From: a virus
Lineage: Duplodnaviria > Caudoviricetes
DNA length: 64,000 bases
Strand: one strand, 5' to 3'
IMG/VR virus record: IMGVR_UViG_2654587994_000003
Coordinates: 44,557-108,556 of that record
In this document: piece by piece, positions 1-62,474 of the stretch
How the letters are laid out: every line of letters starts with the position of its first letter
Position numbering within the stretch: position 1 is the stretch's first letter
The notes under the pieces: model-generated
Databases searched by the model: none
The model's input: only the letters and a program-made list of their open reading frames with translations
Told to the model about the DNA's origin: nothing
Made by a program: the position numbers and the translations under genes

Positions 1-405
1 GCGTGAGCGCCAGAGGTTTGTCCAGAAGTCCTCCCCCATGCACTTGCGGCCCCATTCAGTGCCAAGCGTTTGCATAGCGTAGCGAGGCGTGCGTCCGGAC
101 AGCATTGCAAGGTCGGTTTCTTTGTGCGCTCCTTCGATGTGGCCTTCACCAAGACCTATGGCCCGCAACATGTCTTTCAGCGGCCCTGCGAACTTCACCA
201 GTTGGTATCCGTGCCTCTCAACCAGGTATTTGCTGGCCGTGCTCTTACCGCTGCCAGCAAGGCCGGTGAGCGCGATGACGGTTGGCAGACTGGTGCTAAC
301 CTTCCCAATCGCCGCGCCGAGCGCGCGCAGTTCTGCTGGCACATTATCGTTCGCCGGTACGGCTGTGAGGCAGCCGGTGTCTTTGGATGTGATTGCGTCT
401 ACCAT
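1..405 (-). CDS. Deoxynucleoside monophosphate kinase (runs off window; absent from ORF track)
   Basis: Manual translation from ATG 405: MVDAITSK...IALTGLAGSGKST (P-loop)...KFAGPLKDML...TPRYAMQTLGTEWGR, typical phage dNMP kinase motifs; GGAGG RBS. Confidence 0.85.
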   Translation of the reverse strand, partial: MVDAITSKDTGCLTAVPANDNVPAELRALGAAIGKVSTSLPTVIALTGLAGSGKSTASKYLVERHGYQLVKFAGPLKDMLRAIGLGEGHIEGAHKETDLAMLSGRTPRYAMQTLGTEWGRKCMGEDFWTNLWRSR

Positions 406-662
406 AAATCCTCCGAATAGAGCTGGGGGCCATTGGTGGCCGATTTGATTTGGCCTGCCGCATGCGCGAGATAGAATGCCTCAACGCGGTTCACGAAACG
501 ACCTCTATCTGTGATGAATCCTTGCGCCTGAGGCGTCGCCACCGCGCCATCTATGCTCATTTGGGTGTCCATCGTTTGGATGATGGTGTGATGTCTGGCA
601 GGCGGCGGGAGCGAAATCGTTGCGCCGAACTGGATTGCCGCGGCGGCTATACGCTCTAGCAT
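399..662 (-). CDS. Phage hypothetical protein
   Basis: 87 aa ORF overlapping both neighbours in the operon. Confidence 0.7.
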   Translation of the reverse strand: MLERIAAAAIQFGATISLPPPARHHTIIQTMDTQMSIDGAVATPQAQGFITDRGRFVNRVEAFYLAHAAGQIKSATNGPQLYSEDLW

Positions 663-889
663 TTGTCTGCCTCAGCGAGCGCTTCAAATATTACTTCTTC
701 GTTCAAGTAATTCTCTCGCGCCAGACTTGCGAAATCCACTTCAGCAGGGCAGTGAACGATCGCCGCTGCAATGGCCTCCCTCGACCGCTGGAGGTATCGA
801 AGTCGCTCTGCTCTTGGCATCCCCATCCACGACCTCTTATCAAAAGAGGAGTCCGATTTTGCCATCGCTGCAATGACCTTAGCTAACAT
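656..889 (-). CDS. Phage hypothetical protein
   Basis: 77 aa, overlapping start/stop, GGAG RBS. Confidence 0.6.
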   Translation of the reverse strand: MLAKVIAAMAKSDSSFDKRSWMGMPRAERLRYLQRSREAIAAAIVHCPAEVDFASLARENYLNEEVIFEALAEADKC

Positions 890-1167
890 ACCGTCTCCTT
901 AATCCTCTTCTTGCCTTCGACATTCGGCTTCACCACCGGCTTAAACCGGCGCAGCGCGAACGGTGGATCCTCATCGCCGAACTGCGGACACACGCCACGG
1001 TTCACGCCCGCCAGCCTGATGCCGGCGTAATCTCCACCGAGATACGTGCGGCACATGCCCACCCACGTCGCCGTGTAGATCTCCCCGGCACGAATGCCGG
1101 GGTATTGCTCAGGAAGGGTGGTGTCGTCGACGCAGACGACTTCGTCGCCGGGTTTGATCGCATTCAA
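883..1167 (-). CDS. Phage hypothetical protein
   Basis: 94 aa, coupled to upstream ORF, GGAGG RBS. Confidence 0.65.
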   Translation of the reverse strand: MNAIKPGDEVVCVDDTTLPEQYPGIRAGEIYTATWVGMCRTYLGGDYAGIRLAGVNRGVCPQFGDEDPPFALRRFKPVVKPNVEGKKRIKETVC

Positions 1168-1364
1168 GAGACGGCCTCCTCCCGCGTCATTTCACCAAGG
1201 TAGCTCACTGCGATTGGGCACGCGTCGGCGCCTCCCAAAACAGCATTCCGCGCTTCTCGAATCCGCCCCTCGTTCACGTATTTGTCGGGCCACCCCATCG
1301 TGACGCGCGCAAACGTTCCATTCGCTGCCGCGTAGCTGAACATGAAATAATGGAGCTTCTTCAA
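1164..1364 (-). CDS. Phage hypothetical protein
   Basis: 66 aa, 4-nt overlaps on both sides. Confidence 0.6.
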   Translation of the reverse strand: MKKLHYFMFSYAAANGTFARVTMGWPDKYVNEGRIREARNAVLGGADACPIAVSYLGEMTREEAVS

Positions 1365-2092
1365 GCCGCCCTCCCCGCCATCAACGCATCAAACGTCGCC
1401 AGGAACTCAAGCTCCGCCTCCTCCGGCGACCAGTACCGCAGCTTCACGCCCAGCTCTTTCCCGGCGTACCGCGCATGCCACGGCATCTCCCGCAGGTTGA
1501 CCAGCTCGTCGGCGATGATGCTGTTGTCGGCGTCGTGAACCTCGCGCGGCAACTCCTTCGGCAAACCAAACCGCGCCGCGATAGCCAGCCAGTTGTCTTG
1601 CTCGATCGCACGGTAGTTCGTCAGGTACGGCTTGAGTGGGCGCGGAATGTCCACGCAGTATGCTTCAGGGGCATCGTGCAGAAGGCCAGCCAAAGCCACC
1701 TCCGGCGCGTGCTTGGCTGCAAGGTGACGGGCAATCAGAACTGAATGTTCGGCGACGCTGTAGAACTTGATGCAGTGCCCTGCGTAGCGGCATTGCAGGC
1801 CGAGCGAATGCGCGATGTCTTCGATGTAGACTTCGTGCGGGCGCGGCGACATCGGCCAATATTTGCGACCGGTGAAGGTTTGCATGAAATCGCCGGCGCG
1901 GGGTGGTTCGGCTGGTGTGTTGCGGGTTAGGCCGATGTATTGTCCGTTGTCCTGGGACTGAGGACGGTTGTCGTTGGCGGCAACTGGGGTACACCTTGTG
2001 CGCTCTTCGCGCAGCGCCATTGCAGCCTTAAAGGTGGCGATCTTTTTATCTGCGATCTCTCTCGCGTCTATCACTGCAGCGTATGGCATCAA
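1361..2092 (-). CDS. HD-domain 5'-deoxynucleotidase (YfbR/YfdR-like)
   Basis: DIAHSL..CRYAGH..FYSVAEHS..LLHDAPEAY..DIPRPLK motifs. Confidence 0.85.
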   Translation of the reverse strand: MMPYAAVIDAREIADKKIATFKAAMALREERTRCTPVAANDNRPQSQDNGQYIGLTRNTPAEPPRAGDFMQTFTGRKYWPMSPRPHEVYIEDIAHSLGLQCRYAGHCIKFYSVAEHSVLIARHLAAKHAPEVALAGLLHDAPEAYCVDIPRPLKPYLTNYRAIEQDNWLAIAARFGLPKELPREVHDADNSIIADELVNLREMPWHARYAGKELGVKLRYWSPEEAELEFLATFDALMAGRAA

Positions 2093-2517
2093 AACGCCTT
2101 CCCACCAGCCATAAGCCGGTTTTCGATTTTGTGGTCAGGGCGGTTGGCGTTGAATGCCATCTTCTCGACGGCGGCGCCGCCGAGGTCATAGCCAAGGAAC
2201 GCAGCCAGATCGCCGATCCGAATCATTGCGTCAGCAAGCTCCACCTCAGCCATAGGTCGGTGCGGCAGCTTGTCGTCCATCAGCACTTTACCGGGCTTGG
2301 ACTTGCGATAGCCCTCCATCGCTTCGCTGATCTCGCTGTGAATCAGGCAAAGCATCTCAGGCACGTTGCGGTCCAGCGCCCTGCCTGTGGCGAGGTCAGT
2401 GTACCAGCCTGCTCTACGGCTTGCTGCGTGGCAGTCGGCTGCAAACAGGTTGATCGCTGCGGCGTGGTGGAATTCCACCTCCGCAGCAATTTTTAAAGTC
2501 ACGACGTTGTCACTCAT
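2089..2517 (-). CDS. MazG-like NTP pyrophosphohydrolase
   Basis: LIHSEISEAMEG..EVELADAMIRI (EXXE..EXXD) all-alpha NTP-PPase motif. Confidence 0.8.
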   Translation of the reverse strand: MSDNVVTLKIAAEVEFHHAAAINLFAADCHAASRRAGWYTDLATGRALDRNVPEMLCLIHSEISEAMEGYRKSKPGKVLMDDKLPHRPMAEVELADAMIRIGDLAAFLGYDLGGAAVEKMAFNANRPDHKIENRLMAGGKAF

Positions 2518-2723
2518 TCTTGTCTCCTCAGTGGCGGTGGTTGACCGCCAGTTGGTAGCTGGCGGCTGGTTGGGGATTGCTGGGGAAGTCGCTGTATAAA
2601 TGCTAAAAAAACCCGAATTTGCCGGTTGTTTCGGTGGTTATCCCCCATTGGCAATTGACCTTCGGCCCGTAGGGAGTCCTTATTGCCATTGTGGTGCCAG
2701 CGAATCTTTCACTGGAGCACCAA

Positions 2724-2873
2724 ATGAAGACCTTCCTTAAGTTCAGGCACGGTAAAACCGAAGGTGAAGCGAACAACACTCTCGGAATGTTGCTGCTTAC
2801 GATCATTGCCGTAACCTACAGGCTTGCGCCGTTCATCGCGCTGGGCGCTGGCGGATACTGGTATGTTCGCTAG
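2724..2873 (+). CDS. Small membrane protein (moron)
   Basis: 49 aa with hydrophobic segment, GGAG RBS, opposite strand to operon. Confidence 0.5.
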   Translation: MKTFLKFRHGKTEGEANNTLGMLLLTIIAVTYRLAPFIALGAGGYWYVR

Positions 2874-2877
2874 GGCG

Positions 2878-4131
2878 TCACGCCACCGCCCTCGCCGGCT
2901 CATTGTCATTGGCCGCCGCATATCGCCCCGCGACCATCTCCGGACGCAACGTGGCGCGGGCAACTTCGCCGAAGCGGCGAGAATACGTGATAACTTTGGC
3001 AGACCGGCCCGACAGCCATCCGCCGCCAGCAGCGTATGCGTCAGGCGCGGCAAGCGTTTCGTGGCGCTCGACATACATCAGCGCCGACTTGCGGCCCTCA
3101 TCGCTGTGCAGGTGCCCGACATGCGCGAAGGCGTACTTCGATGCGCCGAACATTTCGCGGAACATGCCTGCCAACGTCGCATCGACCTGGGCCACGCCAC
3201 GCTTATGGCCGTGGTGATAGAACAGCGCTGTGTCGCCCCACTTGTAGGCGTAATAAAGCATAGGGCTGGTATCGACCGACACGCGCGGCTCGTTCTCGTA
3301 GATCGTCGCCAACAGCTCGCGAACCCATACGGACGAGGCCGGGTCATGGTTGCCCGAAGCCATGACGACGTGAACGTGCTTGTGCTTTTGCAACAGCATA
3401 TCAACGACGCGACGCAGAGTGCGAATAACGACGCGGACCACCTTATGCAGGCGGGAATCGGCGTCGAGAACGTGCTTATGCGCAGGCGTCACGCTCTCAA
3501 GAGCGTCATGGTGCAAGAGGTCGCCGAGCTGCGCGAGAACAGCTGTGTGCGCCTGCGGAGCGCCAGCCACAGCGGCGGCAAACCAATCCAGCAGCAACTG
3601 TTCGGCCAGCCTTAGATCGTAGTCGGCGCCCGTTTCCTCGCGATGGGCCAGCATGCCAAAATGGCTGTCGGTCACAACGAACTGGTTGAGGAGGTCTTCT
3701 TCGATGTGCTGCGGCGCAGGCATTATCGTGATGCGAGGCAGATTTTCCTTGAGGCCGTCGACAACGGCGCGGAACGCGGCCAACTGCCCTTCGGCATCCA
3801 CCGCCGTCTTCTGCCACTGCTGGATAACGCGCCCCTCAGCATCAACGAGGGCAGACACACCTTTGACGACGTGGCCAGTCGGCACCGCGAACTTCTCGCC
3901 CCGTTCCGGCGTCTGCTGGATGAACGTGCCGCTCGGAGTGTTGCTGATACGGCTTATGCGAAAGCCAGGAAGGACAGGCTCCGTGCCAAGAAGGCCAGCT
4001 TCGGCGGCGCGTTTGATGCTCTCGGCAAGAGCGGACTTGCCGATGCCAAGCACGGCGGCAGCCTTCACGAGCGTGCCGTGCTCTTTGTAGGCATCGGCTC
4101 TCCGGCGTAGTTCTTCTATGGGTAGAGGCAT
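2878..4131 (-). CDS. Calcineurin-like metallophosphoesterase with N-terminal HTH
   Basis: TDSHFG, GDLLH, GNHD, HHGH, GHLH motifs; start set at ATG 4131 behind GAGGAG. Confidence 0.8.
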   Translation of the reverse strand: MPLPIEELRRRADAYKEHGTLVKAAAVLGIGKSALAESIKRAAEAGLLGTEPVLPGFRISRISNTPSGTFIQQTPERGEKFAVPTGHVVKGVSALVDAEGRVIQQWQKTAVDAEGQLAAFRAVVDGLKENLPRITIMPAPQHIEEDLLNQFVVTDSHFGMLAHREETGADYDLRLAEQLLLDWFAAAVAGAPQAHTAVLAQLGDLLHHDALESVTPAHKHVLDADSRLHKVVRVVIRTLRRVVDMLLQKHKHVHVVMASGNHDPASSVWVRELLATIYENEPRVSVDTSPMLYYAYKWGDTALFYHHGHKRGVAQVDATLAGMFREMFGASKYAFAHVGHLHSDEGRKSALMYVERHETLAAPDAYAAGGGWLSGRSAKVITYSRRFGEVARATLRPEMVAGRYAAANDNEPARAVA

Positions 4132-4183
4132 GCAGTCTCCTCGATGTGGTGGTGAAGGCCGCTTGGTGGGCGGCCTGATTATT

Positions 4184-4849
4184 TTACTTACGCGCCAGCA
4201 ACTCACAAACCGCAGTCGAAGGCACGACATAGCCATAGCCAACCAGCGAGCCTGAGAAGCCAATAGGCGCAGCCATGACGCCAACAGTGATGCCGATCAG
4301 GTCGCCGTTGTCTGCGTAGACGGGTCCGCCTGACTGGCCCATCACAGTTGTGATGTCTGTCACATAGACCGATTTCCAAGGACCTGTTTCGCGGGACTCG
4401 CCAGCGATCTTTCCGTATGCGGCAACGAATTCGATTTTCAGAGGATTGCCGTAAGCAACGATAGGATCGCCAACATTCACAGCGTGGCAGGCCAGTTTTG
4501 CGACGCCGAGGCCGTCCGACGACGTACGCAGCAGTGCAATGTCATTGGCTTTGTTGACCCAGAGGACATCAGCCTTGCGAAGAGCTCCGCCCTTCGCTTT
4601 CAACTGAACTTCCTTCGCGTCGCCGACGACGTGCGCAGCAGTGACTATGAAGCCATCGCCGATATGAACGCCGGAGCCGTGGCCGTTTTCAAGCTGGATT
4701 TTAACGGTGGCTGTTTCTGTTGCTGCGGGTGTTGGTGGAGGAAGGAGCGCATAGGCGGCCGCAGATGTCGCGGCGATGACGAGGAATAAAGCAACGAGGA
4801 ATGCTGTTGGCGTACGCCGCGACGCGGCATGCAGGAATCGTCTGAGCAT
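4184..4849 (-). CDS. Trypsin-like (S1) serine protease with N-terminal signal/TM segment
   Basis: GSGV, TAAHVV, DIALL, GQSGGP catalytic triad motifs. Confidence 0.85.
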   Translation of the reverse strand: MLRRFLHAASRRTPTAFLVALFLVIAATSAAAYALLPPPTPAATETATVKIQLENGHGSGVHIGDGFIVTAAHVVGDAKEVQLKAKGGALRKADVLWVNKANDIALLRTSSDGLGVAKLACHAVNVGDPIVAYGNPLKIEFVAAYGKIAGESRETGPWKSVYVTDITTVMGQSGGPVYADNGDLIGITVGVMAAPIGFSGSLVGYGYVVPSTAVCELLARK

Positions 4850-35179: not shown

Positions 35180-35256
<77 letters not shown>

Positions 35257-36844: not shown

Positions 36845-36948
36845 GGGCGTCTCCTCGTGGTGCGGTGTCGTGGTGGCGACACACTTACTTTCCGAGAGAC
36901 GAGCGAAAACGGGTAGTCGAATTTGAAAATATTTTTGGGTGAGCATCA

Positions 36949-37165
36949 GGTTGCACCCGGACCGCCCCTCTGGCCGGTGCACGTTGCCCGAATAAATCAT
37001 CTTGAGAACCGTGCGCGCGGCACACCGCCCTGCACGGTTGCACGTGTAGGGGTATATATAAATATATACCCTACTAAACGTGCACTAACCGGGCAGCGCT
37101 GTGCAGGTGTCTCCGCCCGGACGTGCACAGTTACTGCACGGATAAAATTTTGTTATCCGGGCAAA
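36949..37165. other. Putative replication origin
   Basis: Non-coding; many TGCAC and CCCGG repeats around AT palindrome GGGTATATAT-AA-ATATATACCC (37050-37071). Confidence 0.55.
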
Positions 37166-43338: not shown

Positions 43339-43568
43339 GCCTGCGCCTCCGCCCATTCGACCCACGCCAGCAACTTCTCTGCAGGAAAGCTGCTAAGACG
43401 GCTGCCATCATCCTTGATCTGCAACAGGTATCCGCGCGGGAACCTGGGCGGTGGCTTGAAGCCTTCTGGCAAAACCAGCGAAACGCTGGCCTTGCTCTCA
43501 TCCAGACCTAGTTCGCGCGCACCGGTAAGGCTTGCGTTGCAAGCTTCTTTCATCTCGGCCGAGGTCAT
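43335..43568 (-). CDS. Hypothetical protein
   Basis: 77 aa, ATGA overlaps on both sides. Confidence 0.6.
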   Translation of the reverse strand: MTSAEMKEACNASLTGARELGLDESKASVSLVLPEGFKPPPRFPRGYLLQIKDDGSRLSSFPAEKLLAWVEWAEAQA

Positions 43569-46886: not shown

Positions 46887-47414
46887 TCACGCCACCCTCA
46901 CCGACAGCTGCTCACCCGCCTCGCCCATCTTTGCGCCGCGCACCTTCTTGCCAGCCTGCAACGCCTCCTTGATGGCGGTCTTGTCGGGCGATGTCGAAAC
47001 GCGCACGTAAGCCTTTGGCAACGCGGCTTCGTCGATGATCTCAACCGATGCAGCCTTCTTGCCGATGGATATCGTCGCCTCGGCCAGCGGCACGCGCGGC
47101 ACGCCGGCAGCCTTCAGCAATTTTAACATCAGGCTTCGCATGGCCTCCTTGCGTCGCTCTGCGCGCGACTTGCGCGCTTGCAGATCGGAAATGCGGAGCG
47201 CAACTGACTTTGCCAGGCTGTCGGCGTCGCGCTCGCCGTTGACGAGGCGCGTCAGGACGGCGTGGAAGTTGGTCTCTCCTTCCAGCATGTCTGCGCGCAG
47301 TTCTTCGTCTGTCTCAAGCTCCGGATAAGCGGCCAGCATGTCGGCGAAAAGCGCTTCGAGGTTGGCGACGTCGGCGGCCAAATAGTTGTCGTTGGCGGAT
47401 CTTCTCTCGCTCAT
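46887..47414 (-). CDS. Siphovirus Gp157-family protein
   Basis: Coiled coil, then IIDEAALP..PDKTAIKEAL..G..V.GA. Confidence 0.82.
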   Translation of the reverse strand: MSERRSANDNYLAADVANLEALFADMLAAYPELETDEELRADMLEGETNFHAVLTRLVNGERDADSLAKSVALRISDLQARKSRAERRKEAMRSLMLKLLKAAGVPRVPLAEATISIGKKAASVEIIDEAALPKAYVRVSTSPDKTAIKEALQAGKKVRGAKMGEAGEQLSVRVA

Positions 47415-48068: not shown

Positions 48069-49823
48069 CTAAAATGGCACGTCATCGTCCATCAACACCC
48101 GCCAATCCTCTTCTTCCGGCGCGTTGTCATTCGCCGGCGACACGCGATTATCATTGGCCGCTCCAACCACGTGACCCACGACATCCCAGTATTTCTGGCG
48201 CGGCTTCACCGTGATCTCCACCGTGTCGGCCAGCTCTGACTGACGCTCAATCCACTCCAGAACCGTCTTGGGAAACGGCATCTTGCCGCCATGCGCGCGC
48301 CAGTAACGGTCGGCCTTTGACTTCGGGAATCCGCTATGTTGCGGGCAAACCCACTCGTTGATCGCCGTCATGCCGACCATGTAGCTGACCTTCACCGACG
48401 GCGGCTTATCGCCCTTCCCTTCGTGGTAGTAGAAGCTACGCGAAGTGACGGTGCGGGGTTCTGGTTCTGCCGTCGACATGATCGGCGTATCAGCAGCCGT
48501 CGCCGTAATCTTAGGGCTGTCATCGATATCGAACTCATAGCCGCAGCAAGAGCACGTGCGCGCTGAGGCATGCACCTTCTCGCCACAGCCGAAGCGACCA
48601 TTCTTGTCCTCGACGTCGAACGGGCAGACCTTCACTGGCGCTTCCCCGTCGCCCTTGTTGGGCGTCTTTGGCTGCACCATGTCGACCGGTCCGTGCTTGT
48701 CGACGAGACCGGCGAAGTCCAGCACAAGGCACGAGGGTTTCGGACCAGCCTTAATCGCGGCAATGCGCCCCTGAGGCGTGTCGAGAGGCATGCCAGGCGC
48801 GTATATCACGCGAGTGCCGCGGCCCATCATCTGCACGTACAGCGAAACTGACAACGTTGGCCGAAGGGCAGCAATCAGGTCGACACCCTTGTGATTAAAT
48901 CCGGTGGTCAGAACCGAGTTGTTTGTCAGCGCGCGGATCTTGTAGGACTTGAAGTCCTCGATAATGCGACGGCGCTCATCCTTCGGTGTTTCGCCGCTAA
49001 TCATCTCGCAGGAGATGCCGCGTGAACGAATCTCGTCACGCACATGCTCGGCGTGCTCGACGCCGGAGCAGAAGCAAAGCCATGACTTGCGGTCGGCGCC
49101 CTTTGCGACGATCTCATCGACGGCGGAACGCGTGACGTCCATCTTGTCCACGGCAGCCTGCAGCGCGGACTGCTTGTAGTCGCCGCCCTGCCTTCCGACG
49201 CCCTTCATGTCGAAGGTCGTGGCAGTGGCCTTGGACGAAAGCGGCGCGAGATAGCCGTCAGCAACGCCGTCGGCGATGCCATAGGTGTAGACGATCTGGT
49301 CGAACAGCCGATCGTCGCCCTCATCCAATCGGCCTGTATCCAGCCGGTAAGGCGTGGCGGTGAGGCCTAGGATTTTCATGTCGGGATTGATGGCACGCAG
49401 GGCCGCGATGAAGCGACCGTACATCGTGTTGCTGTTGGCGGGGATCAGATGGCACTCGTCCACCATCAGCACGTCGATGTGCCCGATGAGCGCAGCTTTG
49501 CTGTGCACGGTCTGAATGCCGGCGAAGATGATCTGGCTGCGCGCGTCACGACGGCCAAGGCCGGCCGAGAAGATCCCCGCCGGAGCAAATGGCCAAATGC
49601 CGAGCAGCTCAAGGTAATTCTGCTCGATTAGCTCAGCGACATGGGTGGCGACAAGGATGCGCATGTCCGGCCAGCCTTCAACCAGCCTCTTGATGAGCGA
49701 AGCCATGAGCAGCGACTTGCCGCAGCCGGTGGCAAGGTCGACGAGCGGATTGCCGGCCGTCGTTGACCAATAGTCGAAAACGGCGTTTTCTGCTTCTTCT
49801 TGGTAGTGGCGCAGTTGGAGCAT
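48069..49823 (-). CDS. SF2 DEAD/DEAH helicase (RadD/UvsW-like) with zinc finger
   Basis: ATGCGKS, DECH, TATP, QMMGRGTR; ends MDDDVPF. Confidence 0.9.
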   Translation of the reverse strand: MLQLRHYQEEAENAVFDYWSTTAGNPLVDLATGCGKSLLMASLIKRLVEGWPDMRILVATHVAELIEQNYLELLGIWPFAPAGIFSAGLGRRDARSQIIFAGIQTVHSKAALIGHIDVLMVDECHLIPANSNTMYGRFIAALRAINPDMKILGLTATPYRLDTGRLDEGDDRLFDQIVYTYGIADGVADGYLAPLSSKATATTFDMKGVGRQGGDYKQSALQAAVDKMDVTRSAVDEIVAKGADRKSWLCFCSGVEHAEHVRDEIRSRGISCEMISGETPKDERRRIIEDFKSYKIRALTNNSVLTTGFNHKGVDLIAALRPTLSVSLYVQMMGRGTRVIYAPGMPLDTPQGRIAAIKAGPKPSCLVLDFAGLVDKHGPVDMVQPKTPNKGDGEAPVKVCPFDVEDKNGRFGCGEKVHASARTCSCCGYEFDIDDSPKITATAADTPIMSTAEPEPRTVTSRSFYYHEGKGDKPPSVKVSYMVGMTAINEWVCPQHSGFPKSKADRYWRAHGGKMPFPKTVLEWIERQSELADTVEITVKPRQKYWDVVGHVVGAANDNRVSPANDNAPEEEDWRVLMDDDVPF

Positions 49824-50374
49824 ACGAAATTCCAGACCTTGAGATAAACGATTGGATTGCAGGGTTATCTGCGCTCGCCGCTATGCTCGCGGCTGCTTTT
49901 GCTTTCTCGTCGGCCCGCCAAGCCAAAAGACAAGCGGACGCGGTTCTCGGAGACGTAGAGCCTGTATTCAGCGCCTATCAGCTACCAGACGATGGGAAAA
50001 ACTATCGCCACAGGGTCGCCATCGAGATAGTCAACCACAATCGGCTACCGCTCTATGTCCAAAGCATCAGGTTGGAGTACCCTGACTGGGTGCTTATTCA
50101 CCGTGGAGCGGAAGAGGTTCGCGATCTTGTTGCCGCACTTTACGACGTAGTCATCGAGAAAAAGCGTGAGCACGTATTTGACGTTCCTTTCCGTCTCGCT
50201 GGGCGCTTCTCGAGTGATATGCCTGCAGTATCCACAAGCGTTTTCAATGTGAGATTTCTCGACCAGAACCAGCAGGGCGGTTTTGTACTAGGCTTCATCG
50301 TCCATTATCGCATGCATGGATCGAAGCGGGTTCGAGTTGCGTTTGCCTCGACAGGATTCGACGTTTTGGACTAA
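49763..50374 (+). CDS. Membrane-anchored moron
   Basis: TM segment followed by ARQAKRQAD; true start probably downstream of 49823. Confidence 0.55.
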   Translation: MTNSRKRRFLLLLGSGAVGAYEIPDLEINDWIAGLSALAAMLAAAFAFSSARQAKRQADAVLGDVEPVFSAYQLPDDGKNYRHRVAIEIVNHNRLPLYVQSIRLEYPDWVLIHRGAEEVRDLVAALYDVVIEKKREHVFDVPFRLAGRFSSDMPAVSTSVFNVRFLDQNQQGGFVLGFIVHYRMHGSKRVRVAFASTGFDVLD

Positions 50375-50907
50375 CCAGCCTCCCGCAGCAGCCCAAGCAC
50401 CCTCGCCCGCTCCTTGATGACGATCTGGCGAACGCGCTCTTTGGTGAGGCCGTGGTCATTGCCGATGGCCTCCAGCGTCTCGCCCATCGCCCTGCGCATC
50501 AGCATCGTGCCATTCCGGCCTTCCAGCAGGGAGACAACGCGCGATAAGTCGGTGCCCTCCTCCTGGTGCGGATCAGCAGAACCCGGCAGCTCTTCGAACG
50601 CGGAGAGACTGCAGACCTCAGCGGACCGCGACTTGGTGGAATTTGTGCGAACGAATTCCTGCGCCGTACCCCGAACACAGAGGACGGCCCATGTCCAAAA
50701 GGTCTCAAGCCGGCATTCCCGATGACGGCGCAACATGACGACCATCGCCGACTGAAAAAGTTCGTCGGCCGCGTCTTCGTTCTTGGTGATCTTTCGCGCC
50801 AGTCTTCGTAAAGCCGGCTCGTAGGCCAGAAGCTTGCGGTCGAACTCGGGACTGCGCAGATTGTTATCATTGGCAGCGACAAGCGGCGTGCGTGCAACAA
50901 GCGGCAT
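50371..50907 (-). CDS. ECF-like RNA polymerase sigma factor
   Basis: LRRLARKI..AADELFQ..WA (region 2); ETLEAIG..LTKERVRQI (region 4). Confidence 0.8.
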   Translation of the reverse strand: MPLVARTPLVAANDNNLRSPEFDRKLLAYEPALRRLARKITKNEDAADELFQSAMVVMLRRHRECRLETFWTWAVLCVRGTAQEFVRTNSTKSRSAEVCSLSAFEELPGSADPHQEEGTDLSRVVSLLEGRNGTMLMRRAMGETLEAIGNDHGLTKERVRQIVIKERARVLGLLREAG

Positions 50908-50927
50908 GGTGGTCTCCTCATAAGGTG

Positions 50928-51857
50928 TTAGGCGTTGGTGGCGCCATCTATCCATGTCGTGCCGTCTCGCAGCACATAAGTGATTGTCTCAGCTTCCTCA
51001 TCGCAATCCGTTTGCGTGCCGGGGACGAGGGCCGGGATCGTCAGATGCGTGGGGCAGCCTTCCTTTTGCTCGTCGAATGAAATCGGCTTTGCCCAGCGTG
51101 CGCAGGACCAATGACCGCCGCCGCCCATTTCCGGCGACGAGTGAATGCAGGATCGACAGGTGACGCGTGGCCATGCACTCTCCTTGCATACAGGCTTGTG
51201 CTTGCAGAAGGTGCATTCGAACCAGTCCGGCGCATCGTTGATGCGCGACGGGGGCTCTGGCGAATTGATGATCCGTTCTAGCCGCGCCAGCAGACGCAGA
51301 CAGAACTCCGGATCGTATTCGATGCGCTCGGCATAAAGCGTGTCATCATCCTTGCAGCTGACGAGGTAGAGGCAGCGCGATAGACCGAACGCGTGCATTC
51401 CAAGCTGGCACTGTCCGTAGTGGAGCGGTTTCGCTTCCTTGCAGCCGTCCTTCACAATCAGTTTCATGCCCTTGGCGTTGCTCGACTTGAATTCGAGCAG
51501 GTGCTCTGTCTTCGGAGCCTCTACGACACCCATTGCCTTGCCGTCGCACTTTCCGCGCACGTGCCCCTGCACCAGCCTGATCTTGTCTTGCTGGCCGTAG
51601 ACATCGACGCCGATGCGCTCAAGGTCTTCAACCAAGCGCGATTCCTCAAGATTGCCGGTTTCGAACAGACGCAGCTGGCGGCCGTGATGCTTTTCCAGTG
51701 GTGAGGCCCATCGGAAGGCATACCAGAGAGCGCGATCGCATGGATTGTTGGCCTCACCAACGGATATGCCGAGGCTATCCCATGACGAGGCTGCGGCTTC
51801 GTAGGCGGCGTAGATGGCACGGACTGTGCTGGATTCTGGCTTGGGTAGTGGGGCCAT
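50928..51857 (-). CDS. PD-(D/E)XK (Cas4-like) exonuclease
   Basis: CDRALWY, GKCDG, LEFKS, QCQ, C..C..C cluster. Confidence 0.82.
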   Translation of the reverse strand: MAPLPKPESSTVRAIYAAYEAAASSWDSLGISVGEANNPCDRALWYAFRWASPLEKHHGRQLRLFETGNLEESRLVEDLERIGVDVYGQQDKIRLVQGHVRGKCDGKAMGVVEAPKTEHLLEFKSSNAKGMKLIVKDGCKEAKPLHYGQCQLGMHAFGLSRCLYLVSCKDDDTLYAERIEYDPEFCLRLLARLERIINSPEPPSRINDAPDWFECTFCKHKPVCKESAWPRVTCRSCIHSSPEMGGGGHWSCARWAKPISFDEQKEGCPTHLTIPALVPGTQTDCDEEAETITYVLRDGTTWIDGATNA

Positions 51858-51897: not shown

Positions 51898-52953
51898 TCA
51901 GCCGACCCTCATCGGCATGCAAACGAGCGTCAGCCCCTCGAAGCCGTCGGACGTGATCAGCCCCGGCGTGCCGCCATCCTGCAAGGCCAGCTTGACCGGA
52001 CCAGACGGCAAAACGTTCAGAACGTCGCGGACGTAGGCAGCGTTGAATCCGATATCCATCGGCTCGCCGCTGTATTCTGCCTCGACTTCGTCATTTGCCG
52101 ACGCCTCGCCAGCCGCGACAGCAAGCGCGATGCTGCCTGGCGCGATGCTGAACTTCACGGCACGGCCGCGCTCAGACGACACGGTCGAAACGCGGTCGGA
52201 AGCCTTCATCAGCGCGTCACGATCAACGGTGATGACACGTTCGTTGCTCGTAGGAATGACGCGCTCGTAGTCAGGAAATGTGCCGTCGATCAGCTTCGAC
52301 GTGATGCGCACGTCGTCCGACACGATGCGGATTTTCTGCTGGCTGACGGCCACCTGCACCTTGCCCTTCGGAAGCAGGCCGACGGTCTTACGTGGCACGA
52401 TGACGCCATCGAAGGTTGGCAACTCAGGGCCGATGTTACGTCCGAGACGATGGCCGTCGGTGGCAACTGCTTCCGACTTGCTGCCGCCCTTGAAGAACAC
52501 GCCGTTCAGATAATAGCGCGTTTCCTCTGTCGAGATCGCGAACGACACCGGTGCAAACAGTGCGGCCAGATCGATCCCGAATTCAGCGTCGAACTTGTCT
52601 TCGCCAAGCGTCGGGAAGTCTTCTGCCGACAGCGTCGAAAGCGAAAAACGCGAGCGGCCGGACTTCACCGAAAGTTTGTCACCCTCCAGAGACATAGTAA
52701 TGTCGCCGGTCGCCTTGCGGGCGATGTCGTTGAGCAGCTTGGCGCTAACGCAGATGTTGCCGGGCTTGGCGACCTCCGCCGGCACGCCTGCAGTGGCGCT
52801 GATGTCGAGGTCGGTTGCAGTGATCGCGAGGCCATCGCCTGCGGCTGCAAGCTGGACACTCGACAGGATGGGGATGGTGGATCTTGCTTCGACGACCTTA
52901 GTCGTGGCGGCAAGCGCGCGCGTCAGGTCTTCCTTGTGAATGACAAGGTGCAT
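51898..52953 (-). CDS. dnaN: DNA polymerase III beta sliding clamp
   Basis: TIPILS, ATDLD, EETRYYLNG, ATDGHRL, LIDGTFPDY, MPMR. Confidence 0.92.
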   Translation of the reverse strand: MHLVIHKEDLTRALAATTKVVEARSTIPILSSVQLAAAGDGLAITATDLDISATAGVPAEVAKPGNICVSAKLLNDIARKATGDITMSLEGDKLSVKSGRSRFSLSTLSAEDFPTLGEDKFDAEFGIDLAALFAPVSFAISTEETRYYLNGVFFKGGSKSEAVATDGHRLGRNIGPELPTFDGVIVPRKTVGLLPKGKVQVAVSQQKIRIVSDDVRITSKLIDGTFPDYERVIPTSNERVITVDRDALMKASDRVSTVSSERGRAVKFSIAPGSIALAVAAGEASANDEVEAEYSGEPMDIGFNAAYVRDVLNVLPSGPVKLALQDGGTPGLITSDGFEGLTLVCMPMRVG

Positions 52954-53010: not shown

Positions 53011-53844
53011 TTAGGCTGCCCAAGGGGCCGGTTGACGCTTCGGCGGTTCGTAGCCGATTGGATAGCCGAAACCATCCTTGCCTTCATCGTACCGGCTCTC
53101 GTCGAACTGCTCGCCCTTCAACCCAGCGATCTTCTTGAACAAACCGATCGCGCTGCCTGGCTGCTCTTCGTTGTCGTTTGCCACCCACGATTCCTTGCCT
53201 TCATCATCGACGGTCAGGGCAGATATTGCCGCATCGAGAGAGAAAGGCGTGCCTTCCGTGCCGAGAACAACCTTCTCGCCATAAGCGCCGCCGATCTGGT
53301 CTTTCAGCTCCTCCCACGTGTCGATCTTCACCTTACGTCCTGCCAACACGATCTTGAGGATATCGCCCTTGCCGATCGTGTAGCCACGGTCCTGGTACTT
53401 GAGGACGCGAGTCGCCGACGCCAACGGATAGCGAGTGCCTGGATGGAATCGCAGGAATCGCTGTGAATTGTGCTTCAGGAAGTCGTCGTGAAATGAGAAT
53501 TCGTCACTGTCGAAATCCAGCGCACCCATGACGGCCGTGAAGTCGAACGCGTCGAAGATGTCCTGCGCCGTCGGGAAGAAATCGAAGTGCATGAACTGGA
53601 TCGGTGTGCCGCCGCTTTCTGCAAACGTCACGGCACGCTTTGTCGTTGAGACGCACCAGAAACCATTTTCGTAAGCGTCTGCGACTGCATATTCGAAGGC
53701 CTCGCGGCTCTTGAAGTAGACATCAACGTCGTTGATATCTCGATTGGTGAACACGCTTGTCACCGCTCCGCCGGCCGCGAATGCGCCGGGGATCGGGTAG
53801 CATTTCTCCGTGATCTTTCTGGCTTCCGCCTTGTAACTGCTCAT
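53011..53844 (-). CDS. Pol-beta-like nucleotidyltransferase (CCA/poly(A) polymerase head-like)
   Basis: AGGAV..DINDVDVYF..FDFT. Confidence 0.65.
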   Translation of the reverse strand: MSSYKAEARKITEKCYPIPGAFAAGGAVTSVFTNRDINDVDVYFKSREAFEYAVADAYENGFWCVSTTKRAVTFAESGGTPIQFMHFDFFPTAQDIFDAFDFTAVMGALDFDSDEFSFHDDFLKHNSQRFLRFHPGTRYPLASATRVLKYQDRGYTIGKGDILKIVLAGRKVKIDTWEELKDQIGGAYGEKVVLGTEGTPFSLDAAISALTVDDEGKESWVANDNEEQPGSAIGLFKKIAGLKGEQFDESRYDEGKDGFGYPIGYEPPKRQPAPWAA

Positions 53845-53904: not shown

Positions 53905-54483
53905 TTACTTGCTGCCCCAAGGCCGACGCGTCGTGCCGGCGGCCGCAGCGGCAGGCTTGTTGTCATTGCTGGCGGCTGTGCGGCGGTTGTCGTTGGCTGC
54001 GGCTGGCGCAGCATCGACCTTCGGCTCAGGCAGGTTGCCCTCATCGGGGTAATAGTACTTCTTCACCTCGTTGCGGGCCGCGTACTTCGGCGTGCCGTCG
54101 GCGTTCTTCTCCTTGCTATCCTTCCCCATGCCGATGCGCGCCATGAAGGAGATGAAGTGGAGCTCGTCGGAGTCTTCTGGCGCCTCGTTCAAGCCGAGTG
54201 AGCGCAGGAGGCAGGCAAATTGGCGCTGACCGATTTCCTGGGTCTGAGGGTTTGGATGCTGCAGATTGTAGTTGTTGAAGACCTTGCGGCCTTTGAGTTC
54301 CTCTGGAGCAAGGACGTCGATGGTCACGCTCAGATTGATGGCGTGGTCGCGGGTGTCCTTGTTCTTTTCCTTGATCTCGGAGGCGCTGATTTCCAGCTGG
54401 TAGTCGCCGTTCGGCAGGTTGGTGAAATCGCGCTGTTGGGTGTTCTCTTCGGTCGCTTCAACTCTGACGCCAATCTTGGCCAT
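53905..54483 (-). CDS. DUF669-family ssDNA-binding protein
   Basis: LPNGDY..GRKVF..NL..N.VK..PW; follows Sak4. Confidence 0.75.
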   Translation of the reverse strand: MAKIGVRVEATEENTQQRDFTNLPNGDYQLEISASEIKEKNKDTRDHAINLSVTIDVLAPEELKGRKVFNNYNLQHPNPQTQEIGQRQFACLLRSLGLNEAPEDSDELHFISFMARIGMGKDSKEKNADGTPKYAARNEVKKYYYPDEGNLPEPKVDAAPAAANDNRRTAASNDNKPAAAAAGTTRRPWGSK

Positions 54484-56243: not shown

Positions 56244-57137
56244 TTAGGCTGCTTGCTCGTATTCGATCCACGCCTCGACGGCGTCTTTGGCGCCCTTCAG
56301 TGTGAGACCCGCAACCGCCCGCAGCTCCTTGATCGCATCGATCTTGAGGCCCAGCGCAGCCATGTTCTGCCACTTGTGGTCATAGACCGGCGCGGCTTCT
56401 TCGTGCGTCGTGGTCAGGGTGAAGACGCCGAACTGCTTGCCTTTGTACTTTGCCGCGAGGCGCTTTGCTTCCTTCTCGGCTGCGACGGTGGACGCGTGTA
56501 CGTGCGGTGTCGACGATGGTTTGGGCTGGCCGTTTTCGATGAGGGCGACGATGGTGGTGGTGGTGGTGGTGGTGATTAGTTCGATGCTATCTATGGGGTC
56601 GGTCGCACCCCAACCCTCTTTCGTCCAGTGCGTGCGAACTGTGCGCTGGTCGACAACCTCTTTCACGACGCCCTCAAACTTGAGGGTCTTGTGGCGAATA
56701 AGGTCACCAACCTTGAACTTCGGCTGCGCGTTGTCGTTGCTTGGCTTGGCCACGGGATCGCCGATCCATTCGGCGATGATGTCGTTCTGCTCATGACCTC
56801 CGACGCCATTCCAGTAGTATCCATCGCGCCGCCACTGCTTGCCGTCAGCCGCGTAGATGTTGCCCCCTGCGTAAGTCACCGGCCCAACCTTCCGGCCATC
56901 GCGCGTTTTGTAGAACTTACCTTCCTCGATCTTGAGGGTGGAGGCAGAAGGTTCGAGGTTCGAGGCCTTAGCCCACCACCGTCCGGATTCAGAGAAATCC
57001 ACATAGTACGTGTGGTCAACGGCGTCGTACTGGATGACCGTGCCGAGCTCTCCGGTCTTTCCGTATCGACCGTGCCCGTTGTAATCTCCAGAATTGATCA
57101 GTCTAACTTCGTCACCCTTCTTAAACTTCCCCATCAC
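56244..57137 (-). CDS. Mosaic multi-domain protein with C-terminal bL12-like domain
   Basis: KF..GD.V SH3-like modules; KIDAIKELRAVAGLTLKGAKDAVE. Confidence 0.7.
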   Translation of the reverse strand: MMGKFKKGDEVRLINSGDYNGHGRYGKTGELGTVIQYDAVDHTYYVDFSESGRWWAKASNLEPSASTLKIEEGKFYKTRDGRKVGPVTYAGGNIYAADGKQWRRDGYYWNGVGGHEQNDIIAEWIGDPVAKPSNDNAQPKFKVGDLIRHKTLKFEGVVKEVVDQRTVRTHWTKEGWGATDPIDSIELITTTTTTTIVALIENGQPKPSSTPHVHASTVAAEKEAKRLAAKYKGKQFGVFTLTTTHEEAAPVYDHKWQNMAALGLKIDAIKELRAVAGLTLKGAKDAVEAWIEYEQAA

Positions 57138-57415
57138 GCTGCTCCTTCCGTTGTTGTCTCGGCGGTCATCGCGCGCCGTTGTGTGAAGTCGACCTTGACG
57201 ACGTTGGTGTCGTCATCCTCTTTTGCTGGCGGCTCGCCCTCCGGATCGTGTTCGATCTCGAAGCCGTGCCACCAGATCGTCGATGCGCCGTCAGCAAGTC
57301 GCACCTGGTACTCGCTGCCCCAGTTGCGATCGCCGATGACGACGCCAGTGAGATGAGGGTTTTGTCTGTTGCGGACCGGATCGCCGAAATTGAAAAATTC
57401 GCAATCGCAGCTCAT
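57134..57415 (-). CDS. Hypothetical SH3-like protein
   Basis: FNFGDPV..TGVVIG..YQVRL. Confidence 0.6.
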   Translation of the reverse strand: MSCDCEFFNFGDPVRNRQNPHLTGVVIGDRNWGSEYQVRLADGASTIWWHGFEIEHDPEGEPPAKEDDDTNVVKVDFTQRRAMTAETTTEGAA

Positions 57416-57762
57416 GCCGCCACCCGCTCACTACGCAGTGCGTAGTCGTTGACCGCCTGCCCCGCCGCCAGATCTTCAGCATTGTCATTTGCCGCGGCAA
57501 GAACGCGCGGGAGCGAAACCGGCATAAGGCCGGAAAGCGTGGAGCAACCGCCGTTGTGCGGCGCCAGGTGCGTCGTGCGGTCGGGATTGTTGTCGTTGGC
57601 GGCAATGATGGCGCGCTGCTTGTGCAGGCCGTATGTGCGCCGAAGCCGCTGGTATGCTGCCATTGGCTTGACGTTGTATCTGGCGGCGATATCTGCGACG
57701 CTCTCACCGTTTTCACGGCGCGCGTGCATATCCGCCAGCATTGTGCTGGTGATAAGCGTCAT
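57412..57762 (-). CDS. Small HTH protein (cro-like position)
   Basis: GESVADIAARYNV..AYQRL; first gene after promoter copy 3. Confidence 0.7.
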   Translation of the reverse strand: MTLITSTMLADMHARRENGESVADIAARYNVKPMAAYQRLRRTYGLHKQRAIIAANDNNPDRTTHLAPHNGGCSTLSGLMPVSLPRVLAAANDNAEDLAAGQAVNDYALRSERVAA

Positions 57763-60689: not shown

Positions 60690-60941
60690 ATGGCATATGG
60701 CGACTACAGCGGTCCGGATAAGGCCGACAAAGGCAAAGAGGGAGGCAGCTGCAACCGGCGTAGATGCCAATGCGCCCCAGCCAACTGGTATAACCACGGC
60801 TCCCTTTCTTGGTACTGCGAGGACTGCAAGGAGCAAATCTACGACCCGATCGGCCAGCGGTATTGGAAGCAGGACTTTCCGAACGCCACTCACCCGATGT
60901 TCGAAACACGCAAGATGATGGACGACCGCCAAGCGTCCTAA
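60690..60941 (+). CDS. Small zinc-finger protein
   Basis: CNRRRCQ..WYNH..WYCEDC; GGGAGG RBS. Confidence 0.65.
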   Translation: MAYGDYSGPDKADKGKEGGSCNRRRCQCAPANWYNHGSLSWYCEDCKEQIYDPIGQRYWKQDFPNATHPMFETRKMMDDRQAS

Positions 60942-60973
60942 CCACCACCAAACACCACACCGAGGAGACAAAC

Positions 60974-61186
60974 ATGTCGAGAAGACGCGACACCACCTAT
61001 ACCCCTGCCCCATACGCCGGCGACGGACTTGAGGTCCTAGCCAACCTTTCATCCGTAAGCGCACCGACGGCCGTTCTGGTTGCTGTCGCCAAATGGCACG
61101 AGCGCAGGAAGGATGCCCGCAACCGCGTCATCGCCTCCAAGCTGCGTGAGCTCGTCGCGGCGAATGACAATGGGAGGAGAAGATGA
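60974..61186 (+). CDS. Hypothetical protein
   Basis: 70 aa, GAGGAG RBS. Confidence 0.65.
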   Translation: MSRRRDTTYTPAPYAGDGLEVLANLSSVSAPTAVLVAVAKWHERRKDARNRVIASKLRELVAANDNGRRR

Positions 61187-61641
61187 TGTTTTGGAAGAAG
61201 CGCGAAAAGTCCGCCATCACCCTCAAGTCAGAGTATGAGCTCGTGCGCGAAGAACGCGAAGAGATGCAAAAAAAGAAGATGAAGGAAGATGCAGATGCCG
61301 TGCAGCGCTCTCTATCCTACGAGCCGCCGGTCCGAGTTGTTAAGGGGAAATACAATGACTTTCTTGAGGTGGCCTCTCCGTTCGGAAGGAAGGTTTGCGT
61401 CCCCATTCACCTGATTTCCGCCACGTCTATTCGATACGTCCCTGCGTCGCTGCGCTTTTACTCTCCTATGAATAGTCCGAGCGATATAGCTTCGATCATC
61501 ATCGAGATGAGTTCCGGCACCAAGCACGACGTCAGCGTGGAGGTTTCTTGTGCAGAGCTTCTCTTGGAATCCGTGAACAGGGTTTGGCAACAGCCTGCGG
61601 CCGCCCTAGCCAGCACAGGAGGCGAACACCATGCAGAGTGA
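61183..61641 (+). CDS. Hypothetical protein
   Basis: 152 aa, coupled to upstream gene. Confidence 0.6.
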   Translation: MMFWKKREKSAITLKSEYELVREEREEMQKKKMKEDADAVQRSLSYEPPVRVVKGKYNDFLEVASPFGRKVCVPIHLISATSIRYVPASLRFYSPMNSPSDIASIIIEMSSGTKHDVSVEVSCAELLLESVNRVWQQPAAALASTGGEHHAE

Positions 61642-62221
61642 CGCAGCCGCCAAGCTTGAACTGTGGTTCTTCCGCGACATGCTCGAAAGTAACCGTATCC
61701 GGCTTTTCGAACTATTTGGGTTCAAACCATCAGAGATGGATACGATGGCGAAACAGCAAATGGTATTTCGTCGTATACTCGACGCCTTATCGACGGACGC
61801 GGAGCCGGTAGGTTGGCAGTGGCGACACCCAAGGGCAACGGGCGGCGAATGGATGAATTGCCCTAACGGACCAAGGGCAGACAAGCTGTCGGAAGCCGAA
61901 TATCGGCCTGTCTACGCCGCCCCTCCCGCGCCATCCGTGGTCGTGAAGGCTTTGCAGGATCACGTGCTGGCGGATTTCACGCACCTGACAGATGCCCAAG
62001 CCCTGTCGGGACCGTATATCGTCAAGCGCATCAAGGAGCGCTTCGGGTCGTTCGCCCTCTCCGCGCAGGTGCAGGACGTGGCGGGGTGGCAGCCGCTTGA
62101 GACTGCGCCGAAGGATGGCAGCACTTTTATAGCGCTCGCATCCAAAGGACTGCTGACCCACTGGATGCCTCTCCTCGCAGCACCCGCAAAGCCGGAGGGC
62201 AGCCATGTCACCAGCCAATGA
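61631..62221 (+). CDS. Mosaic hypothetical protein (DUF551-like remnant)
   Basis: EPVGW..RPVYAAP..WQPLETAPKDG..THWMPL. Confidence 0.65.
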   Translation: MQSDAAAKLELWFFRDMLESNRIRLFELFGFKPSEMDTMAKQQMVFRRILDALSTDAEPVGWQWRHPRATGGEWMNCPNGPRADKLSEAEYRPVYAAPPAPSVVVKALQDHVLADFTHLTDAQALSGPYIVKRIKERFGSFALSAQVQDVAGWQPLETAPKDGSTFIALASKGLLTHWMPLLAAPAKPEGSHVTSQ

Positions 62222-62474
62222 CAACACCCCTCGCCTCATGGGCAGAAGAGAAGCCGCCGCCTATCTCGGTATAGGACAGTCAACGTTCTCGCTGTGGGTA
62301 TCGACCCACAAGATGCCGGCAGCTATTGCCGGCACTCGTAAGTGGGACAAGCGCGCGATTGACGCTAAACTCGATGAGATAAGCGGGCTGCTGCCGGCGA
62401 ACGACAATACCGAGGATGAATTCGAACGATGGGAGCGCGAGCAGAATGCGCGAAAAGCTCAAGGGTCTAGCTAG
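62205..62474 (+). CDS. Excisionase-like HTH protein
   Basis: LMGRREAAAYLGIG.STF..W..RKWD; overlaps int. Confidence 0.8.
   Translation: MSPANDNTPRLMGRREAAAYLGIGQSTFSLWVSTHKMPAAIAGTRKWDKRAIDAKLDEISGLLPANDNTEDEFERWEREQNARKAQGSS

Follow-up and report, generated by a model that had tools for sequence, protein, structure and literature searches.

Host AAA+ proteases destabilise phage proteins such as lambda O, which is degraded by ClpXP, and lambda Xis and CII, and ClpX also remodels MuA. MuA is named as a ClpX substrate in PMC5415555. In mycobacteriophages with integration-dependent immunity, C-terminal ssrA-like tags were found on the integrase and the viral repressor (Broussard et al. 2013, as summarised in PMC9635641). 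The adaptor SspB delivers a non-ssrA substrate, the N-terminal fragment of RseA, and Pseudomonas phage pf16 encodes an SspB homologue, according to PMC5587285. Phage-encoded ssrA-like tags on an integrase and a repressor, single unstable phage proteins and a phage SspB homologue are thus already known. Here we describe a short motif, [A/S]NDN, in the proteins of a temperate Agrobacterium phage, encoded in a window of 64,000 nucleotides (the whole stretch of DNA analysed, bases 44557-108556 of the 108.5-kb provirus record IMGVR_UViG_2654587994_000003). The motif is probably an encoded mimic of the host ssrA tag that couples its carriers to host SspB-ClpXP. What appears to be new is that one tag-head motif is shared across many phage proteins. 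Literature searches of full texts gave no description of ANDN or of a shared tag-head motif across many phage proteins, and the genome paper of Sinorhizobium phage AP-16-3 makes no mention of ssrA, transfer-messenger RNA (tmRNA), SspB, ClpX or a motif.

The E. coli SspB binds the ssrA tag's first seven residues and tethers substrates to ClpX, whereas the C-terminal end is read by ClpX (PMC9963277). In Caulobacter, an encoded C-terminal AANDNFAEEFAVAA tag leads to rapid proteolysis, which is slowed down upon deletion of sspB (PMC9393093).

Similar to the mycobacteriophages, in which host proteases such as ClpXP set the lifetime of the tagged proteins, a temperate phage here appears to encode an ssrA-like tag. 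However, the tags of the mycobacteriophages stand at the C-termini of two regulators and integration removes that of the repressor, whereas here 16 proteins are involved, mostly enzymes, and the adaptor-binding head would be used as a separate movable motif. In addition, the arrangement of integrase and repressor in those phages is not found here, as the integrase (62416-63507) has no NDN copy and no Ala-Ala (AA) end, and the attachment (att) site lies in a tRNA-Arg gene instead of a repressor gene. As for the lambda and Mu proteins, host proteolysis would limit replication, excision and regulatory proteins, and the Xis-like protein here has two heads; the lambda and Mu proteins carry individual and unrelated degrons, whereas here one shared host-tag motif is found on many unrelated proteins. 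Action of SspB on genome-encoded sequences, and phages that touch the SspB system, have their precedent in RseA and pf16. Nevertheless, pf16 carries the adaptor, whereas the present phage carries the ligand and its record holds no SspB homologue.

Occurrence and reading frame of the motif

The pattern coding for ANDN, GCNAAYGAYAAY, has 18 matches in the window, compared to a mean of 0.23 and a maximum of 2 in 100 dinucleotide shuffles. Seventeen of them are in the reading frame of an open reading frame (ORF), with starts at 343, 1967, 2902, 35722, 40989, 43592, 47385, 48123, 48147, 50863, 53170, 53986, 57481, 57589, 61160, 62214 and 62397. The sole match out of frame (21140-21151, plus strand) is antisense to a tail-region ORF (20813-21175, minus strand). 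This frame statement is based on curated ORFs, since a greedy longest-ORF caller misplaces short genes and classed three matches as intergenic, three as antisense and one as frame 1. Two SNDN variants (53959-53970 and 56730-56741) and one ADNDN (36383-36397), all on the minus strand, bring the total to 19 [A/S]NDN copies plus one ADNDN, that is 20 copies in 16 ORFs. The [A/S]NDN copies comprise 10 AANDN, five PANDN, one VANDN, one SANDN and two xSNDN. ANDN is the most over-represented tetrapeptide in the window (p 4e-20), and [A/S]NDN occurs 14 times in the crude gene set against 0.21 expected from residue shuffles within proteins. GNDN matches at 5731 and 25526 are antisense to likely genes. 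The carriers are as follows, with the coordinates of the motif copies first.

343-354, minus strand: dNMP-kinase-like (deoxynucleoside monophosphate kinase) P-loop protein of 218 residues, ORF from 251 bases before the window start to 405; PANDN at residue 18, in the N-terminal tail; ends AA
1967-1978, minus strand: HD/YfbR-like protein, ORF 1361-2092; AANDN at residue 39 of 243, N-terminal of the domain; ends AA
2902-2913, minus strand: DNA-repair exonuclease of 468 residues, ORF 2878-4284; C-terminal AANDN followed by EPARAVA; ends VA
35722-35733, minus strand: p314, family unassigned, ORF 35389-36333; AANDN at residue 201 of 314; ends AA
36383-36397, minus strand: protein of 209 residues named VRR-NUC-like in the preliminary description, ORF 36371-37000, matching phrog_824 (function unassigned) and no Pfam family; ADNDN, three residues before the C-terminus
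40989-41000, minus strand: Prim-Pol/AAA_25 primase-helicase, ORF 39837-42059; PANDN at residue 354 of 740, in the interdomain linker; ends AA
43592-43603, minus strand: N6/N4 DNA methylase, ORF 43565-44644; C-terminal AANDN followed by HAVAKVAA
47385-47396, minus strand: Gp157 of 175 residues, ORF 46887-47414; SANDN-YLAA at residue 7, in the N-terminal tail; ends VA
48123-48158, minus strand: SNF2/ResIII helicase of 584 residues, ORF 48069-49823; AANDN and PANDN at residues 556 and 564; ends DDVPF
50863-50874, minus strand: sigma-70-family factor of 194 residues, ORF 50371-50955; AANDN at residue 28, before region 2
53170-53181, minus strand: protein of 277 residues, ORF 53011-53844, previously described as a nucleotidyltransferase and matching PHROG families without assigned function; VANDN at residue 222; ends AA
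53959-53997, minus strand: DUF669 SSB-like protein of 192 residues, ORF 53905-54483; AANDN and ASNDN at residues 163 and 172, in the C-terminal tail
56730-56741, minus strand: p297, function unassigned, ORF 56244-57137; PSNDN at residue 133 of 297; ends AA
57481-57600, minus strand: helix-turn-helix (HTH) protein of 116 residues, ORF 57412-57762; AANDN at residues 55 and 91; ends AA
61160-61171, plus strand: ORF 60809-61186 of 125 residues; AANDN four residues before the end; a doubtful gene with no family match and a weak coding signature (GC content at third codon positions, GC3, 0.58 versus GC2 0.52)
62214-62408, plus strand: Xis-like HTH_17 protein of 89 residues, ORF 62205-62474, adjoining the integrase and identified by a weak HTH_17 match (E 1.7e-4); PANDN at residues 4 and 65

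The preliminary description had reported (A/S)NDN in about 16 non-structural proteins and none in virion proteins. The same 16 ORFs were recovered here, and no in-frame copy was found in TerS, TerL, the portal, the head protease, the major head protein, the tape measure, the fibres or the endolysin, nor any ANDN copy in the first 44 kb of the same record.

The description had also stated that synonymous codons vary freely, and this holds as well. Among the 19 [A/S]NDN copies, the first Asn is spelled AAC 11 times and AAT eight times, Asp is GAC in 15 and GAT in four, and the second Asn is AAC in 12 and AAT in seven, while the codon before the first Asn is GCC (11), GCG (4), GCA (2) or AGC (2). 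For comparison, the helicase was used to collect further loci, 79 from viruses and 20 from genomes. Across the clade, 382 pattern matches lie in called genes; frame 0 accounts for 356 of them (93%), other sense frames for 11 and the antisense strand for 15, and a further 150 matches outside the non-redundant gene list were left unclassed. The conserved NDNs of the helicase are spelled with both codons of each residue across the clade. The motif is therefore not equally frequent out of frame, and selection acts on the peptide, as had been suggested, judging from the frame bias and from codons that vary while the residues are kept.

It might be suspected from the commonest spelling, GCC-AAC-GAC-AAC, which accounts for 7 of the 18 matches, that the signal is not a peptide but a site in DNA or RNA, an artefact of composition or an insertion that spread recently. 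However, 18 matches against 0.23 expected, the frame 0 share across the clade, the use of synonymous codons and of Ser (AGC) and Asp variants, flanking sequences that have nothing in common and a single antisense copy in the window all speak against it. Because of the frame and codon data, a signal at the nucleic-acid level or by chance is excluded, with only a minute probability left to it.

The host ssrA tags and SspB

Tags were predicted by ARAGORN from the tmRNA genes of five host genomes. The tag is ANDNNAKEYALAA in Agrobacterium pusense, ANDNKAQGYALAA in Ochrobactrum and ANDNYAEARLAA in Ensifer, Rhizobium and Consotaella. The five have an ANDN head and an LAA end in common and nothing else, and the phage motif is identical to this invariant head. 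An alanine borne by the tmRNA precedes the tag, so tagged proteins carry AANDN. All five tags start with ANDN, as was to be checked after the preliminary description. The SspB protein (PF04386) is encoded beside ssrA in all five genomes, about 100-2400 bases from the two-piece tmRNA gene. The Agrobacterium SspB matches PDB 2NYS (E 1.6e-105) and is homologous to Caulobacter SspB (2QAS/2QAZ).

The A. pusense genome has 43 pattern matches, 20 of which lie in a prophage of about 54 kb, one in the tmRNA gene and 22 in the other 5.2 Mb. Those outside the prophage are on both strands and in all frames. The count of phage versus host thus gives a density roughly 90-fold higher in the prophage than in the rest of the genome. 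Among 301 alphaproteobacterial genomes, all have some pattern matches and a few are clearly above a reversed-pattern control, indicating a low general background.

A reader encoded by the phage itself was considered and rejected, as no SspB homologue is present in the record. The sole Clp-like match in the record, that of the head-maturation protease, is weak and falls short of the family cut-off, and this candidate was rejected as well.

Ala-Ala ends and their spacing from the motif

Eight of the 16 carriers end in AA (the dNMP-kinase-like protein, the HD protein, p314, the primase, the methylase, the 277-residue protein, p297 and the HTH protein) and two in VA (the exonuclease and Gp157), consistent with the earlier statement that several carriers end in AA or VA. 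In the crude gene set of the window, 6 of 12 carriers have an AA end versus 5 of 72 non-carriers (Fisher p 7e-4), and the internal frequency of the AA dipeptide in window proteins is 1.65%. Phage 16-3 has AA ends in 12 of 65 proteins. No AA end was found among 49 proteins of the neighbouring 44 kb, 69 of E. coli phage CAjan, 25 of a Pseudomonas relative and 45 of a Vibrio relative.

The linkage was also found across the clade, using loci L001-L068, L080-L096, L110 and the window for C-terminal and family counts. Among 1469 unique C-terminal 25-mers, an AA end is present in 73 of the 117 tails that have the motif 5-14 residues before the end, compared to 229 of 1272 tails without NDN (Fisher 1.6e-23). 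The number of residues between the motif and the end peaks at 7, 8, 9 and 10 (13, 15, 30 and 21 unique contexts, respectively). With each of 547 families counted once, the AA end occurs in 29 of 46 motif families versus 50 of 501 others. It also occurs in 15 of the 24 families whose motif is over 20 residues away from the end (odds ratio about 15, p 3e-9), although these p-values are indicative only, as the families are not fully independent of phage relatedness. The AA-end linkage is the result that most separates a tag reading from a generic docking motif.

Compared to the native alphaproteobacterial ssrA tag, the (A)ANDN head is the same, and so in part are the AA-COOH end and, in near-terminal copies, the distance from head to end. 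The host tags have 8 or 9 residues after ANDN and end in LAA; the methylase, with eight residues after the motif and an AA end, has this native architecture. The exonuclease, with seven residues and a VA end, nearly fits and looks like a whole tag, whereas the other 17 copies do not fit. In the HTH family, 18 of 19 aligned members end in AA and one in TA, and relatives of the HTH protein have a shorter tail, AANDNRLPEMAVAA, a complete tag look-alike. However, the native tag is added by trans-translation, whereas the gene itself encodes the phage motif. In most carriers, either tens to hundreds of residues separate the head from the AA end or the head stands alone at the N-terminus or in a linker. 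In addition, the middle of the tag is not copied, and Pro is often found beside the phage head.

These separated heads raise another possibility, that the ANDN heads (and the AA ends) serve as decoys saturating SspB (and ClpX). Titration of this kind would shield a phage protein, or it would keep host ClpXP from tasks such as quality control or cell-cycle proteolysis, with degradation of the carriers as a side effect. It would fit with 11 of the 19 [A/S]NDN copies lying more than 20 residues from the C-terminus, with six of the 16 carriers lacking an A-ending C-terminus, and with SspB being present in five of five host genomes checked. The SSB-like protein and the helicase have two heads each and no AA end, and the abundance of the SSB-like protein is an assumption. 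However, one abundant decoy would suffice, yet 46 protein families of the clade keep the motif, in tight linkage with an AA end on the same protein, a pattern resembling the marking of substrates, and no dedicated small decoy protein was seen. We consider titration unlikely.

Two proteins without an ANDN head also end in AA: the portal (30793-32022, minus strand) ends in ARAA, and a tail/virion protein of 113 residues (27818-28159, minus strand) ends in VVAA.

Conservation and placement of the motif in the phage clade

All viral loci with a helicase identity of at least about 51% have the motif, with 1-7 copies per 10 kb and almost only on the coding strand. Among 11 viral loci at a helicase identity of at most 47%, nine have no motif and two have a single copy, and three distant genome loci (Victivallales, Verrucomicrobia and Planctomycetaceae) have none. 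The named hosts of the loci with the motif are Agrobacterium, Rhizobium, Neorhizobium, Ensifer, Ochrobactrum/Brucella, Falsochrobactrum, Paenochrobactrum, Limoniibacter, Aureimonas, Consotaella and one Ferrovibrio metagenome-assembled genome. In phage 16-3, ANDN likewise ranks first among tetrapeptides, observed 13 times versus 0.06 expected. The helicase relatives in E. coli phage CAjan and in Pseudomonas and Vibrio phages come from genomes with neither ANDN enrichment nor a tag-like recurrent peptide; the top repeats of the Vibrio relative, VQQQ and PVQQ, belong to an unrelated Gln-rich repeat. As relatives in other host groups lack the motif, it is specific to the lineage and not a general habit of the replication module.

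For the conservation alignments, distant loci without the motif (L069-L079 and L097-L099) were excluded and each distinct sequence was entered a single time. At 11 of 13 motif positions, conservation is higher in the NDN columns than in the 10 residues on either side, with values of 0.87-0.89 versus 0.40-0.56 in the helicase and of 0.98 versus 0.61 for the first copy in the SSB-like protein. The two exceptions are the VRR-NUC-like and 277-residue proteins, in which the motif is shifted by a few columns. The helicase tail consists of two NDN copies after the folded domain, followed by a run of acidic residues that closes with D-D-[V/I]-P-F. Across 16 aligned tails, the second NDN never varies and the first hardly does, whereas the flanks differ in both sequence and length. 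The logo of 468 unique contexts in the clade reads [A 51% / P 31%]-[A/S/D]-N-D-N-x-[P 37%].

Every copy lies outside Pfam domain envelopes, wherever a domain was found. Copies in N-terminal tails are found in the dNMP-kinase-like protein, the HD protein, Gp157, the sigma factor and Xis, and copies in C-terminal tails in the exonuclease, the VRR-NUC-like protein, the methylase, the helicase, the SSB-like protein, the HTH protein and Xis. The primase, p314, the 277-residue protein and p297 have interdomain or internal copies. In the AlphaFold model of the primase (of moderate confidence, with a mean predicted local distance difference test score, pLDDT, of 68.7), residues 322-389 form a segment that lacks secondary structure and has a pLDDT below 50, and the motif (354-357) is in its middle. 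In the model of the HTH protein, likewise of moderate confidence (mean pLDDT 63.9), both copies are in a tail (45-116) without secondary structure, where the first copy has a pLDDT of about 58 and the second one below 50. The linker or terminal positions given in the preliminary description therefore agree with the domain limits and with all three modelled copies. Between the two ANDN copies of the HTH protein, residues 69-86 form a near-invariant core, NGGCSTxSGxxPVxLxR, which is present in 19 of 19 aligned members and is modelled without secondary structure.

The end of the helicase (window 48072-48086, minus strand) resembles the tip of bacterial SSB. The C-terminal tip of E. coli SSB is similar to D-D-[V/I]-P-F, and several distant ANDN-free helicase relatives keep this end as DEIPF or EEIPF. 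As the end is kept in relatives without ANDN, the helicase tail may also dock partners that bind SSB tails.

The placement in tails raises the question whether ANDN is read by something other than SspB. It might be a short linear docking motif for a non-proteolytic hub, either a host protein of replication or repair that is specific to Rhizobiales or a phage protein specific to the lineage, which gathers DNA-handling proteins, and its likeness to the tag would then be a coincidence. The carriers are almost all proteins of DNA or nucleotide metabolism and regulators, and the motif behaves as a typical linear motif in disordered tails, with flanking Pro preferences unlike the native tag. The SSB-tail-like end of the helicase suggests that docking to a hub does occur in such tails, and the phage has a beta clamp of its own (51898-52953). 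However, this explanation leaves the enrichment of AA-COOH, its linkage to the motif and the native spacing of 7-10 residues unexplained, and the motif coincides exactly with the one part of the host tags that stays constant. The CAjan and Pseudomonas phages, which lack the motif, have annotated clamp-type processivity factors, and CAjan also has Sak4, DUF669-type and Cas4 genes. Since the motif-free relatives share the helicase, and these two also a clamp-type factor, a conserved phage replication protein is unlikely as the reader. We consider a hub of any kind unlikely.

Proposed mechanism

Based on the above comparisons, we favour encoded ssrA-tag mimicry as the probable explanation, in which the motif would be a genome-encoded copy of both working parts of the host ssrA tag, the ANDN head and Ala-Ala-COOH. 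The copies are parts of in-frame ORFs and are not added by tmRNA, and are thus mimics instead of true tags. Since both parts of the tag are read by SspB and ClpX in E. coli and an encoded tag is proteolysed in Caulobacter, tethering by SspB followed by ClpXP would be the most likely mechanism. Host SspB would bind the ANDN head and tether the carrier to ClpX, which may engage AA-COOH or another exposed end. Degradation by ClpXP would make early, replication, recombination and excision proteins short-lived. A temperate phage might benefit, as proteins of the lytic programme would be cleared after the lysogeny decision, leaky expression in the lysogen would be harmless and Xis would be short-lived. 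A further proposal, for which we see about even chances, is a split modular degron code in 16-3-like Rhizobiales phages, with a movable ANDN head in any disordered segment and an AA-COOH end. Such a code, with the same even chances, would determine how long proteins last in roughly a quarter to a third of the non-virion proteome.

Several points weigh against this mimicry. That ANDN alone suffices for binding of SspB is an assumption. Pro is found two residues before Asn in 31% and second after the motif in 37% of unique contexts, where the host tags have Ala at both positions. A simple hand-off from SspB to ClpX fails to explain six carriers whose C-terminus does not end in A, namely the helicase, SSB-like protein, sigma factor, Xis, VRR-NUC-like protein and ORF 60809-61186. 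Self-destruction of replication enzymes is costly, and no timing mechanism is visible in the sequence. In addition, the gammaproteobacterial relatives do not mimic the tags of their own hosts.

If the mimicry is true, a single adaptor-protease pair of the host controls how stable the early proteins of a whole phage lineage are, by means of a four-residue motif. The split degron code, if it exists, would be the counterpart in bacterial viruses of the mimicry by short linear motifs known from eukaryotic viruses. SspB could then deliver substrates whose degron is distant in sequence from the adaptor site, and the carriers would be a natural set of such substrates. Loss of sspB or mutation of NDN should alter the lysis-lysogeny decision, induction and burst, and these effects would be expected in phages of Agrobacterium, Rhizobium and Sinorhizobium, including the classic 16-3. 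The motif could further be a portable degron for alphaproteobacteria, and it could aid host prediction for uncultured phages. Even without SspB binding, it is a strongly selected linear motif common to the lineage.

Genome organization of the prophage

A perfect direct repeat of 45 bp is found at the ends of the prophage, 905-949 bases before the window start and at window positions 63681-63725. The left copy forms the 3' end of a tRNA-Arg(TCT) gene, and the right copy is just past the integrase; the att core is thus the 3' end of a tRNA-Arg gene and not a repressor gene. As the repeats bound both ends, the prophage is about 64.6 kb long and lies almost entirely inside the window. Its regions are as follows.

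1-4284, minus strand: left arm, with nucleotide-metabolism and repair genes
10.7-34.2 kb, minus strand: lysis and virion block
35.4-57.8 kb, minus strand: early/replication operon, with VRR-NUC-like, Prim-Pol/AAA_25 primase, methylase, DEAD-like and Gp157 genes, and further genes for the SNF2-type helicase, sigma factor, Cas4 exonuclease, beta clamp, DUF669 SSB-like protein, Sak4 and HTH protein
Right arm, plus strand: ends in Xis and then the integrase (62416-63507)

The nearest genome match is the A. pusense prophage, whose helicase is 99% identical. By protein search, the helicase has an identity of 79.7% to that of Rhizobium phage RHph_TM3_3_14B, 57% to Sinorhizobium phage AP-16-3 and 43.7% to Rhizobium phage 16-3. 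No match was obtained when 12 kb of the window was compared with cultured phages by megablast. The annotation of phage 16-3 has the same modules, namely Sak4, clamp, Cas4 exonuclease, sigma factor, helicase, methylases and primase, and also VRR-NUC, HD protein, exonuclease, int and xis. From these modules and the integration into a tRNA gene, the element is classified as a temperate phage of the Rhizobium phage 16-3 group.

The beta clamp (51898-52953, minus strand) is a three-domain DNA polymerase III subunit with no ANDN and no AA end; among the proteins scanned, no phage DNA polymerase gene was seen. No tmRNA gene was found in the record. The prophage also has a tRNA-Met(CAT) gene (35180-35256, minus strand), with the packaging genes on one side and the early operon on the other. 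Upstream of the window and outside the att repeats, positions 1-43600 of the record form a second phage-like region with large plus-strand ORFs of the size of terminase, portal and tail proteins, followed by tRNA-Pro(TGG) and tRNA-Arg(TCT) genes.

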